This document shows positions 10,382 through 14,041 of a stretch of DNA of 52,329 nucleotides, piece after piece. How positions within the stretch are numbered: the stretch's first letter is position 1; each line of letters begins with the position of its first letter. The position numbers were made by a program, and so were the translations under genes. The notes under the pieces are model-generated. The model did not search any database, was not told the DNA's origin, and saw nothing but the letters and a program-made list of their open reading frames with translations. Origin of the DNA: Escherichia phage Mangalitsa; sequence record NC_048799.1; one strand, given 5' to 3'.

Positions 10382-10591
10382 TTCCAGGCGGTTTCTTCGA
10401 AGTGCCAAGCGGGTTTGTTGCTCGCATTGGCCTTCGGCATTCTTCTGGGGCATTAGTGGGATTTGATTCTGACCTCTTAGGGAAGAAAGGCATTATACAC
10501 TTATCGCCAAATAGGTGTCAAGCACTTTCTTCATTTATTTTAATTTATTCTTATTATTCTTTTTGTTTGGAATATTGGAATAATTCTTAAA

Positions 10592-10610
10592 CATTAGTTG
10601 GAATTGAAAT
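10592..10610 (+). promoter_or_regulatory. phage-RNAP-type promoter CATTAGTTGGAATTGAAAT
   Basis: Motif family member, ending 1 nt before the ATG at 10609. Confidence 0.5.
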
Positions 10611-10785
10611 GATTAAAGTCCTGGAAAAAGATAATGTAACCTTCACACGCCAATGCCAGTTGTGTGCCTCTGTTGTGTCTTATGAATTCTCTGACTTAAA
10701 GATGCGCACAGGAAAGAATGACCGAGGATACTTCGCATACAGATTTATTCCTTGTCCTGTTTGTAAGAAAGATATTCGACATTAG
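10609..10785 (+). CDS. hypothetical zinc-ribbon protein (58 aa)
   Basis: CQLC ... CPVC pairs; stop codon lies inside the next promoter motif; below ORF-track cutoff. Confidence 0.45.
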   Translation: MIKVLEKDNVTFTRQCQLCASVVSYEFSDLKMRTGKNDRGYFAYRFIPCPVCKKDIRH

Positions 10786-10799
10786 TTGGAATTGGAGAA
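10780..10799 (+). promoter_or_regulatory. phage-RNAP-type promoter CATTAGTTGGAATTGGAGAA
   Basis: Motif family member; transcription would enter the GC-rich 10800..11434 leader. Confidence 0.5.
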
Positions 10800-11434
10800 A
10801 CAACATCAGATAATAACTTTGTAACTCGGTAGACCGTTGCGGCCGCATCGTGAGAGAATGTTCGACTCATTCTGCAAAGTTATTTTCGATGGAATGTTTC
10901 CATCACATACATTTATCTTTTAACATAGGCCAAAGGGCCGGAATACTTCTTCGCAGAAAAGCTATTCACTTGTTATAGGCGATGTATTGGGATGAATTGG
11001 AACTAAATAAGCAAGCTGTTAGGGCTGAATAATTAGAGGGTAGTGCCTCATGCTTATGTTAGTCATTCGAAAATAGGTTTGTGCCACAAGCTGCTGGTGC
11101 TCTGAGGAAGTCGGACAAACAGGGCTTAGAGTGGCATAATCCGCACAAAACCTCGCCACCAGCTATGCCAAAGCAGGTGGATTGGGTGAATGTATTGGGA
11201 AGGGTTGCAAAGCCTCTGTGACACGCCTGAGCCGCAAGGCGACGACACTCATGTGATTAGCGTATCGCACCCCTAACGGGAGTAACCCTTCACCAATGCA
11301 GTTATCCAGAATTGACACAAACGGTAGGCAGCGGCCCGATTTTCGGCCTTCCTGCGCTGCCCTGTGGCCTGTTTCCTGGGCCAAAAGATGAGAAGAGAAG
11401 TCACAAACACTGAATCGAAAATTGGAGAGTTCCT

Positions 11435-11749
11435 ATGATTCGTAAGCATTCTGCCAAAGTTTTGACATTGAGAAATGTCCTCATGCCATTAACAGGAAAA
11501 GAGGAAGAAACAATCCACTTCGTCCTGATTGGTGGACGTTGGTACTATAATGGGACAAACGCCTTCGAAGTTACCAAGTCCCTCAAAGACGGGTTCTGGA
11601 AGAACAATATTAAAGAAGTTCTTTCGGTTAGTGCAAACTACACCCTCGGAGAAGTTAAAAGATTCTTCTACCATGGCCCAAACAAGTCCATGCAAATTGC
11701 AATGCGCGAGTGGACAACAAACCAACCAATTTACGGAGTACCATTTTAA
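11435..11749 (+). CDS. hypothetical protein ending in YGVPF
   Basis: GGAGAG RBS; C-terminal hydrophobic-Pro-Phe. Confidence 0.5.
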   Translation: MIRKHSAKVLTLRNVLMPLTGKEEETIHFVLIGGRWYYNGTNAFEVTKSLKDGFWKNNIKEVLSVSANYTLGEVKRFFYHGPNKSMQIAMREWTTNQPIYGVPF

Positions 11750-12059: not shown

Positions 12060-12734
12060 ATGTCTTATCATGATGACGACAAAGAAATTGCACTTTCTAC
12101 GTGCAAGCAATGGCTCAATGATAATGATGCCGTCTATCTTGCCAAGGAAGATGTTATCATCATGTGGGTCCATTTTAATCCAGAATCTAAACGCGGTGAG
12201 TGGCAACGCTACAAAATGAAAGAGGCTTGCCGAATCATTAAAGCCACTCGCGCTGGCTTCTCTGCGATGAAGTATATCAAACCAGAGATGCTCATGCTTG
12301 CTGCACAAGAAGAAGAACGTGCTTACAAGCAAGCTGTTAAATCTCGCTCAACTGTTCCTCCAGAGTTCTTTAATCTGGAGCGCGCTGGACACTTCAACAA
12401 TTTAGAAATGTTGACATTGTGCATGTTGCAAGAATTAGTTGGAAGAGGAATGAACATTGAAGCTGTTTGCCTTGGGGAACTCATGAAAGAGTTGTTCTTG
12501 ACAAAGGGCTTTGCTGTGCCTAATCGCACGCTTCGTTGGAAACTGCTTCGTGCTGTTGAAGGTGAAGCTGGTGTGATTATCCGTGACCGAACCAACCGCA
12601 TGACTGTAACAGGTGTGGGACGTTTTGTTGCGATTCAAATCGAGGGCATTGACGACTCGATTACAACTGAACTCACTGTCGCCGAGACAAAGGATTTAGT
12701 GATTAAATCAATCGAACGATTCAATATGTATTGA
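12060..12734 (+). CDS. hypothetical protein (224 aa)
   Basis: Long ORF, no recognisable motif. Confidence 0.55.
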   Translation: MSYHDDDKEIALSTCKQWLNDNDAVYLAKEDVIIMWVHFNPESKRGEWQRYKMKEACRIIKATRAGFSAMKYIKPEMLMLAAQEEERAYKQAVKSRSTVPPEFFNLERAGHFNNLEMLTLCMLQELVGRGMNIEAVCLGELMKELFLTKGFAVPNRTLRWKLLRAVEGEAGVIIRDRTNRMTVTGVGRFVAIQIEGIDDSITTELTVAETKDLVIKSIERFNMY

Positions 12735-13196: not shown

Positions 13197-14041
13197 GTTG
13201 CCAAGGGCAAACTTGAGAAGCTAAGCTAATTCGATCTGGCACGCACTGGAAGATTTCCGGTGCTGCCTTGAACCCATTCCGGCGTGAGTGGGCTTCAATG
13301 AGCATTCTTGTGATTAGAGTTGGGAGGTAGGCCGATGCCCAATCTCGTGGCCCAGACAAGAGTGTTCATTGAAGTTATTTCAATATGGATGTACAGTAGG
13401 ATGAGAAGCTTCTCCGATAAGAGGAGTGAAAGTAGCTGGAAGGACATGCCCACAGAACTGACCGAGACCATTACAGTAGTAGCGATTCACTACCGCGAAA
13501 CAGTATTGAAATTGGCAACGGTTCATGCGGAAGGGCATCAGTGAAATCTACGTTCAGTGCGCGTGGTGAAATGAAGGAGTAGTGTCCTGAGAATTAGCCC
13601 TGTCTGGTTAAATGCCAGAGTCCATATTAAAGTAACTGGAAACTATTCCTGTCAGGTACTCCTATAATGTCTGAAACGGAGTCAGGTCGCACCTGGTAGC
13701 CGAGGCTATTTACCTACAGATGGATACCTGACAGAAGTAGTTTTCTGAGTCTTACGACGGGCCTAAACTGCCTGGAGTTATTGCGACTGTTTTATTCATT
13801 TAAAATAAATGCAAATGATTCTGAAATGCGAGTTGCGGCTTAATTAAATTTGAGTCCTCTCCGTGGTCTTCCAATCCCATGTAACCAAATTTGGCGCATT
13901 GTGGCTTCGAGATGTGATTAATAAATCGGAGCAATAATTAATTTGTATTCTGCGATGCAGGGCAGGCTTAAGTCCCTCAGTGCGCGTAGGGATGTGATAG
14001 AGTACAAACTTAATTATTAACCTAACCTATAGAGAAACATT

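Follow-up and report, generated by a model that had tools for sequence, protein, structure and literature searches.

Mangalitsa is a myophage of Escherichia coli belonging to the family Chaseviridae, subfamily Cleopatravirinae, a group of myoviruses that possess a T7-like single-subunit RNA polymerase and promoters of their own. In its complete genome (NC_048799.1; 52,329 bp, which is the window analysed in this study and is also listed, at 100% identity, as IMG/VR UViG_2974545116), we investigated a block without plausible open reading frames (ORFs) between a phage promoter at position 10780 and the gene starting at position 11435. Comparison with related phages showed that the promoter is the predicted start of a ~640-nucleotide (nt) RNA on the + strand (10795-11434), and that this RNA is non-coding, composed of multiple domains, specific to the Cleopatravirinae and under selection for its fold. 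The RNA looks like a new class and was previously unannotated: in more than 40 GenBank records the block is either empty or occupied by spurious small ORFs, an annotation that the present analysis corrects.

Selection for a fold on the + strand

The initial annotation of the Mangalitsa sequence had regarded the block as a candidate structured RNA, namely a long 5' untranslated region (UTR), a regulatory RNA or an RNA gene, and had named a conserved coding frame or a lack of covariation as grounds for abandoning the idea. Taking the three options together, the idea is supported on both grounds, as covariation is strong in close relatives and across the family, and no reading frame is conserved among the 21 distinct relatives that we aligned (alignment A3). 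From this alignment, RNAalifold predicted a consensus fold of 196 pairs in 30 helices, in which 96.4% of the cells are standard pairs. Double (compensatory) changes occur at 41 pairs, compared with 19.8±2.9 in shuffled alignments (0 of 500 reached the observed number), a control that structure-free related sequences can also beat, and with 6-13 when the partners were slid by 1-3 columns; the slid controls and an independent covariance model, R1, address the weakness of the shuffle control. Repeated compensatory changes were found in the stem P1 and the T-arm of the 5' module, in the junction stem 11003-11013/11051-11062, in the arm 11217-11226/11260-11269 and in the hairpin 11323-11361.

The seed of R1 comprised only the 3' domain of 10 distant relatives. 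The model nevertheless retrieved all close relatives, and Mangalitsa 11182-11324 over its full length (27.8 bits, E ~8e-4); on its own seed sequences it scored 129 bits in the sense and 47 bits in the antisense orientation. R1 gave no match in phages GJ1 and Myduc, and neither nhmmer nor R1 found anything in the three Nefertitivirinae loci searched (pAh6-C, Spp001 and VPs20). In the sense rows of the R1 alignment, which was fitted to the model and is hence biased towards it, the long helix of the 3' domain carries double changes at 16 of 28 pairs across the family, compared with 10.3±1.5 after shuffling (0 of 500) and 6-11 after sliding.

The strand and the RNA nature of the element are indicated by several measures. 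The minimum free energy (MFE) of the + strand is -204 kcal/mol (z = -2.8 against shuffles) and that of the - strand is -183 kcal/mol (z = -1.1); the corresponding values for the consensus fold are -300 and -263. On the + strand the paired columns hold 351 G·U cells versus 36 A·C cells, a ratio that would be reversed on the - strand. As the initial annotation had stated, the block carries no plausible + strand ORF, the longest in 10795-11434 being 31-46 aa. Among the 21 relatives, stop-free stretches are 51-81 aa long and 80 of the 101 indels are of a single nt; even the most conserved block shows a 1-nt spacing change, and hence a frame shift, between Mangalitsa and Aeromonas phage phiA050. 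A coding interpretation was rejected on account of the short ORFs, the lack of a conserved frame and the predominance of 1-nt indels. In distant relatives, the primary sequence decays faster than the neighbouring gene while the helices persist: BLAST aligns 5-49% of the block, whereas the downstream gene for a 224-aa protein holds 66-75% DNA identity, which is the usual pattern of an RNA maintained for its fold.

The promoter motif CATTAGTTGGAATTG occurs at 16 genomic sites with three or fewer mismatches, compared with 2.4 expected, and the copy at 10780, already recognised in the initial annotation, corresponds to 'putative phage promoter 5' of the phiEcoM-GJ1 annotation. The leader GAAACAACATC lies directly 3' of the promoter in the close relatives, phiA050, Erwinia phage Faunus and locus L173, and the regions of Y2-like phages, Pectobacterium phages and an uncultivated contig (L036) start differently. 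No leader of the GAAACAACATC type was found behind the other promoter copies of the genome. At the 3' end, the block runs, as had been described, into the ribosome-binding site of the gene at 11435 (Table 1). The motif CAGTCACA precedes this site in nearly all family members, though the downstream gene varies by lineage: it encodes a 104-aa RWYYNG protein, a 69-aa protein, or an unrelated protein of 116 or 144 aa. A helix predicted at 11394-11406/11422-11434 would cover the ribosome-binding site; being invariant, it is uninformative. No simple host-type (intrinsic) terminator pattern was found before the ribosome-binding site, where one weak hairpin is the only candidate. Assignment to a cis-regulatory leader or riboswitch class was rejected, as the downstream gene is not constant and no terminator is present.

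Architecture of the RNA

The features of the RNA are listed in Table 1. The hairpins that the initial annotation had picked out do exist, albeit partly at other positions. The hairpin at 10888 was placed correctly, the AGAATG/CATTCT hairpin (the T-arm of Table 1) does not start at 10853, and the GCAGCG/CGCTGC hairpin, extended to GGCAGCG/CGCTGCC, lies at 11327-11333/11355-11361 rather than around 11318. The reported GGCC palindromes were likewise recovered, one of them being the invariant hairpin of Table 1 and the other TGCGGCCGCA at 10838-10847. The GC enrichment holds for 11000-11450 (0.50-0.52) and not for 10800-11000 (~0.40), with nearby sequence at 0.37-0.45. The element is larger and more modular than the wording 'several local hairpins' implies.

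Table 1. Predicted features of the RNA block and its promoter in the Mangalitsa genome.
Feature	Position	Strand	Remarks
Phage (T7-like RNA polymerase) promoter CATTAGTTGGAATTG	10780-10794	+	Exact repeat of 10592-10606
Conserved 5' leader GGAGAAACAACAUCAGAUA	10795-10808	+	Specific to this transcript
5' module: stem P1 enclosing tRNA-like cloverleaf	10809-10887	+	P1 = 10809-10822 with 10874-10887
D-like mini-arm, loop with GG (CGGU/AGGU variants)	10824-10833	+	
Anticodon-like arm, palindromic apex	10834-10852	+	
T-arm, loop UUCGACU	10855-10860/10868-10873	+	Closed by G10860-C10868
Hairpin GAUGGAA-UGU-UUCCAUC	10888-10904	+	Invariant in 21 relatives
Invariant hairpin GGCC-AAAG-GGCC	10928-10939	+	
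Three-way junction: closing stem UAAGCA/UGCUUA, hairpin AGCU-GUUAG-GGCU, linker GAAUAAUUA, hairpin GAGG..CCUC	11003-11062	+	4 compensatory pairs in closing stem
Long hairpin with GRAAG pentaloop (loop 11106-11110)	11076-11142	+	26 pairs, 99-100% paired
Small hairpin CCAGC..GCWGG	11159-11177	+	
3' domain B: 26-bp helix, 11182-11208 with 11282-11309	11182-11309	+	No unpaired cell in 21 relatives; 5 conserved G·U pairs
Branched insert of domain B, mosaic and sequence-variable	11217-11269	+	
Conserved linker AAUUGACACAAACG	11310-11323	+	
Two terminal hairpins, 11323-11361 and 11366-11382	11323-11382	+	3 and 1 compensatory pairs; 96-97% paired
Conserved tail: GUCACA 11400-11405, Shine-Dalgarno GGAGAG 11424-11429, start codon (ATG) 11435	11400-11437	+	

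The 5' module is tRNA-like, but is not a tRNA. Its stem P1 (10-14 bp) and T-arm carry 8 and 4 compensatory pairs, respectively, the linker between the anticodon-like arm and the T-arm is 2-4 nt, and the MFE fold of the SKA49 version is a four-arm cloverleaf. The T-loop conforms to UUCRANN in all 20 versions possessing a T-arm (variants UUCGAUU, UUCAACU, UUCGAUG, UUCAAUG and UUCGAGU). With seven nt, closure by a G-C pair and a partner loop bearing GG, it has the features of a T-loop motif (tRNA-like elbow) with a putative tertiary contact. At least six versions of the module were recognised, all closed by the same stem (GAUAAG..CUUUG / CAAAG..CUUUUC); in MLP1, BSBP01, Pel53, Faunus, L173 and phiA050 the Mangalitsa type is replaced by other stem-capped versions, of which that of BSBP01 carries GGUUCGAGUCC and a 7-nt loop containing GCA, and those of Faunus, Pel53 and phiA050 are without a T-loop. 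As the versions of the anticodon-like arm differ by 1 nt in register, no single alignment holds for them and they were folded separately. The apex of this arm is a palindrome of 6-10 nt in four sequence versions (UGCGGCCGCA, (C)UGGUACCA(G), CGGCCG and UGUGCACA), which hints at a kissing-loop contact between two copies of the RNA. ARAGORN detected no tRNA in the 52-kb genome or in the RNA region of nine related loci, its two calls (in L173 and L002) falling outside the RNA region, and RF00005 gave no match in the region at E <= 10 or <= 1.

A pseudoknot-like element was noticed in the relatives, comprising GGAGUCCAC, a hairpin, CCGA..ACAA and a second hairpin with a loop UGGAC able to pair with GUCCA. 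The element serves as the 5' module in phiA050 (L003 2777-2829), as a promoter-driven unit in L173 (167-222) and as an insertion within a hairpin in Pantoea phage SSEM1 (L176 3001-3052). It has no Rfam match and looks like a small mobile RNA module.

In the central part, distant relatives keep GAUGG/CCAUC or GAUAG/CUAUC at the base of the hairpin at 10888, with its distal stem and loop changed. The three-way junction is the most widely conserved block and carries the motif GGGCUGAAUAAUU. GGGCTGAAWAATTWGAG is conserved in phiA050, Faunus, L173, L036 and Sabourvirus 4HA13, and takes the form GGGCTGATAATT in Erwinia phage Y2, SSEM1, L178 and Myduc. The apical stem of the GRAAG hairpin covaries in distant relatives (UCUGA/UCGGA, GCUGA/UCAGC, CGG/CCG and GUGAA/UUCGC). 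A likeness to RNase P, which was considered as GAGGAAGUCGGAC resembles the CR-I box GAGGAAAGUCC, was dismissed: the segment is this local hairpin with a covarying stem, and no RNase P model matches.

In the 3' domain, the 26-bp helix is interrupted by a single bulge and one small internal loop. The insert at 11217-11269 exists in four unrelated versions of equal length among RNAs otherwise 90-98% identical, with the closing stem kept in each. The versions recur in distant lineages; for instance, the YSF/PYps16N version resembles those of 4HA13, Faunus and L173. Thus, mosaic recombination of a peripheral arm explains the versions better than targeted diversification, and we rejected the idea of a hypervariable 'guide' cassette. 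Within the linker that follows, CAAAC (11318-11322) is invariant in all 31 aligned family members and the next G is nearly so. The two terminal hairpins have counterparts in distant relatives.

Distribution and relation to known RNA families

The block was detected in 47 phage records, 42 of which cover at least 80% of it, and was found only in phage records. No similar sequence was found in 5,426 complete E. coli genomes, and an origin from, or mimicry of, host sequence was rejected accordingly. Within the genus the block is 87-98% identical to that of Mangalitsa, and the neighbouring genes show 82-88% (antirestriction gene), 70-78% (104-aa gene, where fully aligned), 87-94% (224-aa gene) and 94-99% (two small genes). 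The gene order, namely the antirestriction gene, a small gene, the RNA block and a conserved pair of 102-aa and 224-aa genes, is the same in Sabourvirus 4HA13, Erwinia phages Faunus and Y2, SSEM1, Pectobacterium phages PM1 and PP101, phiA050 and three uncultivated contigs. A metagenome scan with GGGCTGAAWAATTWGAG returned 120 loci, one of which was a true relative.

Most records leave the block empty, and the others carry mutually inconsistent ORFs of 30-60 aa. For instance, Ecp_YSF (L011), 2KOFFS (L185), PYps3T (L009) and BSBP01 (L190) each bear two or three 'hypothetical protein' ORFs of 29-66 aa that differ by record, and these are probably over-annotation. The record of 'Staphylococcus phage Pel53' (PP952070.1, L189; host S. 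hyicus) is ~90% identical in this region to the E. coli Carltongylesvirus phages, and its recorded host is hard to reconcile with this.

The modularity of the locus extends to insertions. The centre of the GJ1 RNA is replaced by an endonuclease gene (L004 1884-2285) annotated as 'putative exonuclease SbcC', which matches phrog_2340 and carries CxxC..HH motifs. It is a free-standing insertion of homing-endonuclease type, and the SbcC product name is probably wrong. A group I or II intron with a homing endonuclease was rejected, because flanking exons and Rfam intron matches are lacking and the GJ1 ORF replaces RNA sequence instead of occupying a loop. In PM1 and L036, small CxxC ORFs with their own promoters are inserted at the same junction. 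In L036 this ORF (~9485-9285, minus strand) differs from the one in PM1, which encodes a phrog_2834 protein inside the RNA region (L180 1221-1411). In Mangalitsa, a four-cysteine phrog_2834 protein of 58 aa (10609-10785) is encoded immediately upstream of the RNA under a phage promoter of its own. This promoter-plus-ORF unit is a mobile cassette.

We searched Rfam 15 at gathering and permissive thresholds with the 52-kb genome and 17 related loci. At the gathering level, neither the genome nor the RNA region in 10 related loci gave a match; the hits in these loci were confined to tRNA genes and one RNAI outside the region. Permissive E-values added only chance-level matches to eukaryotic long non-coding RNA, microRNA and small nucleolar RNA families. 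No match was obtained to the Rfam models of GOLLD, ROOL, OLE, HEARO, raiA, RNase P, tmRNA, 6S, group I/II introns or YrlA. The search for a known family that the initial annotation had proposed was thus negative, and the RNA does not belong to a known family. The region is not mentioned in the papers describing ST32, Mangalitsa and 4HA13, and the RNA terms searched gave no match in a 2026 paper on the Carltongylesvirus phage Tiny. The 10,006 unnamed candidates of Fremin et al. 2023 may include this region.

The RNAI match, a full-length hit to ColE1 RNAI (62.9 bits; L036 13188-13289, minus strand), lies terminally on an uncultivated Chaseviridae contig of 53 kb and suggests that plasmid or vector sequence was joined to the phage contig in a chimeric assembly. 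In Myduc (L181), a gene for a putative CCA-adding nucleotidyltransferase and a tRNA-Arg gene (6368 onward) were observed a few kb downstream of the reduced RNA region.

The closest likenesses are to GOLLD and ROOL, which, like the RNA described here, are phage-encoded, 600-800 nt long, multi-domain, tRNA-associated, protein-independent by annotation and without assigned function. The Mangalitsa RNA combines ~640 nt, 30 predicted helices, 41 covarying pairs, occurrence in phage records only and an embedded tRNA-like module. In GOLLD the 3' region is universally conserved, the 5' region is less so and the linker contains tRNAs (bioRxiv 10.1101/2024.12.08.627333); likewise, the present RNA combines a conserved 3' domain with a variable 5' module and an embedded tRNA-like unit, and its self-complementary loop hints at possible self-association. 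Unlike GOLLD and ROOL, this RNA matches no Rfam model and runs straight into a ribosome-binding site, its hosts are Enterobacterales and Aeromonas, and its carriers are lytic myophages with a T7-like polymerase. As it shares their traits but matches neither model, we regard it as a separate class.

Other likenesses are confined to parts of the RNA. The 5' module shares with tRNA, YrlA and mascRNA a possible four-arm cloverleaf, the T-loop closed by G-C and the GG in the D-like loop. Several versions have a tRNA-like anticodon arm with a 5-bp stem and a 7-nt loop, and, like its counterpart in YrlA, the tRNA-like part is carried by a long stem built from flanking sequence. It differs from tRNA and YrlA in that the acceptor-like stem is continuous with flanking RNA, the Rfam tRNA and YrlA models reject it, and some relatives substitute modules without a T-loop. 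The 6-nt loop palindrome recalls the retroviral dimerisation initiation site, as it changes in sequence yet stays palindromic (GCGGCCGC, GGUACC, CGGCCG, GUGCAC); here, however, it belongs to a tRNA-like arm in a DNA phage, the dimerisation is putative, and the palindromy may reflect a near-perfect hairpin.

Possible roles and genomic setting

The role that we favour, at somewhat less than an even chance, is that of a processed transcript giving rise to a stable ~400-nt RNA that acts as RNA, with the 3' domain serving as a protective mRNA leader. The phage polymerase would produce one primary transcript, with no terminator ahead of gene 11435. The tRNA-like module would be cut by host RNase P/Z-type 'punctuation', and the 26-bp helix by host RNase III, as in T7 transcripts. 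The released ~400-nt RNA would serve some host or phage factor as a scaffold or decoy and might self-associate via the palindromic apex of the anticodon-like arm, and the 3' domain would be left on the downstream mRNA, providing a translation-competent leader. Processing is favoured because the lack of a terminator is combined with structures typical of RNase P/Z and RNase III substrates; the conserved 26-bp helix is a candidate for cleavage by RNase III, whose T7-type sites comprise about 20 bp or more of double-stranded RNA.

Several points weigh against this scheme, besides the cautions attached above to the shuffle control and the R1 alignment. GJ1 lacks ~220 central nt, among them the 5' strand of the 26-bp helix, and in Myduc the three-way-junction block is the only recognisable part and the 3' domain is missing; these losses imply that parts of the RNA are dispensable or independent. 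A tRNA identity of the 5' module was rejected, given an acceptor-like stem of 10-11 bp, the lack of U33 and CCA, and rejection by ARAGORN and the Rfam tRNA model, and such a stem without CCA renders recognition by RNase P uncertain. A 6-nt palindrome is present in 21% of random 20-mers, and near-perfect hairpins partly give a palindromic apex anyway. The literature searched contained no transcriptome of a Chaseviridae phage.

It is attractive to speculate further that the RNA is a third type of large 'ornate' phage RNA beside GOLLD and ROOL, acting in trans in lytic coliphages that plate on E. coli K-12, either self-assembling via the palindromic loop or using its tRNA-like module as a decoy for host defences or enzymes that target tRNAs; we consider this bolder proposal unlikely. 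GOLLD and ROOL adopt ornate folds and even cage-like assemblies, and their function has stayed obscure partly because their hosts are hard to manipulate. The carriers here are small lytic myophages infecting E. coli, Yersinia, Erwinia and Pectobacterium, and phage flopper was isolated on K-12 MG1655. With E. coli as the host, deletion, trans complementation, RNase mutants, chemical probing and cryo-electron microscopy are straightforward, so that the role of big phage RNAs becomes directly testable.

Alternatively, the whole block may be a leader that acts purely in cis, as a long 5' UTR or as a processing cassette of the downstream operon with no function in trans; its hairpins would guard the 5' end from decay, RNase III sites would set the mRNA ends, and the fold would present the ribosome-binding site. 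We hold this to be possible but less likely than the processed RNA. T7 reportedly has a leader of ~400 nt before gene 0.3 and RNase III sites between its genes, and the resemblance includes the T7-like polymerase, polycistronic transcripts, a long helix between promoter and next gene, and the lack of a terminator. The RNA abuts the conserved ribosome-binding site with no terminator between. Furthermore, a promoter CATTAGTTGGATGTG is present in exact form in SSEM1 (L176) and L178 and with one mismatch in Y2 (L177), just upstream of and overlapping the start of the domain-B helix, so that the 3' domain can be a transcription unit of its own; a transcript from this promoter would open with a long helix, the classic arrangement of a 5' stabiliser. 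Nevertheless, a stabiliser or RNase III site needs far less than the ~640 nt found here, with over 10 covarying helices, invariant motifs in unpaired positions and a T-loop module. T7 RNase III sites are single hairpins of ~60 nt, whereas the structure here is multi-domain, covarying and conserved across genera, and its cleavage is predicted. The variation of the downstream gene by lineage also speaks against a leader, as does the identity of the block (87-98%), which matches or exceeds that of most neighbours (three at 70-94%, the two small ones at 94-99%).

A replication-origin transcript, in which the RNA would be a structured primer or R-loop former like ColE1 RNA II or the promoter-dependent T7 primary origin within an origin region at ~10450-11430, seems improbable to us. 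Several features of the setting would suit an origin: three tandem phage promoters (10451, 10592 and 10780), an AT-rich block (~10530-10590) in which GGAATA(A)T motifs recur, an opposite-strand sigma-70 promoter that is perfect and conserved across the subfamily, and a positive GC skew, hence a G-rich RNA across the region. The downstream 224-aa protein has a winged-helix-like C-terminus, and its Spp001 homologue is encoded directly ahead of the primase-helicase and DNA polymerase genes. The RNA is also similar in size to RNA II (~550-650 nt), likewise a structured RNA. Nevertheless, the only strong opposite-strand promoter (10521..10492) is located upstream of the RNA without overlapping it and points away, so that no antisense regulator of the RNA I type is possible; on this account the RNA was rejected as a ColE1-type primer, and it also differs from RNA II by ending in a ribosome-binding site. 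Large parts are missing in GJ1 and Myduc, the fold matches of the 224-aa protein are weak (E > 0.05, pLDDT 59), and covariation extends along the entire RNA and into the ribosome-binding site, which favours a folded free RNA over a hybrid.

An element acting at the DNA level, such as protein-binding palindromes, cruciforms or a packaging signal, would suit the exact palindromes, including TGCGGCCGCA and GGCC..GGCC, and the location within a regulatory hotspot, but we give it very little credence: G·U-type pairs are ~10 times commoner than A·C-type pairs on the + strand, helix sequences change with pairing retained, and the - strand scores much lower. As for packaging, the genome terminates in 3.2-kb repeats that lie elsewhere (PMC6753284). 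Overlooked genes for small proteins, or a decayed gene, to which the 30-60-aa ORFs of some GenBank records might point, are scarcely credible, given that the calls differ by record, most records leave the region empty, no frame is common to Mangalitsa and phiA050, and the stop-free stretches and indels are as described above.

The surroundings of the RNA deserve description in their own right. The minus-strand sigma-70 promoter, TTGACA-18-TATAAT (12/12), is oriented opposite to all genes, sits between the phage-promoter-like sites at 10451 and 10592, and recurs in conserved form (GCATTATACA..GTCAAG) in all the Cleopatravirinae relatives examined, Myduc among them. The region 10451-10606 may be a replication origin or a source of antisense RNA. 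The 224-aa protein (12060-12734, phrog_13087) is strongly conserved, at 63-100% amino-acid identity, and has no family annotation. Its AlphaFold model, of low confidence, contains a C-terminal winged-helix-like domain with weak matches to the winged helices of ORC/Cdc6, RTP and PadR, and the protein may be a replication initiator. Sequence searches of the neighbouring proteins against Pfam, PHROGs, NCBIfam and PDB were uninformative on function.

Finally, a second ORF-poor region of ~850 nt (13197-14041) lies 1.8 kb downstream. Two of its segments are ~75-83% identical among distant relatives, namely ~13380-13635 in phiA050 and L173, and ~13785-13925 in phiA050, L173, Faunus, Y2, SSEM1 and L178. 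In SKA49 and ST32 the corresponding intergenic gap also holds a tRNA gene of 95-97 nt that is missing in Mangalitsa. This stretch may be another non-coding RNA region.

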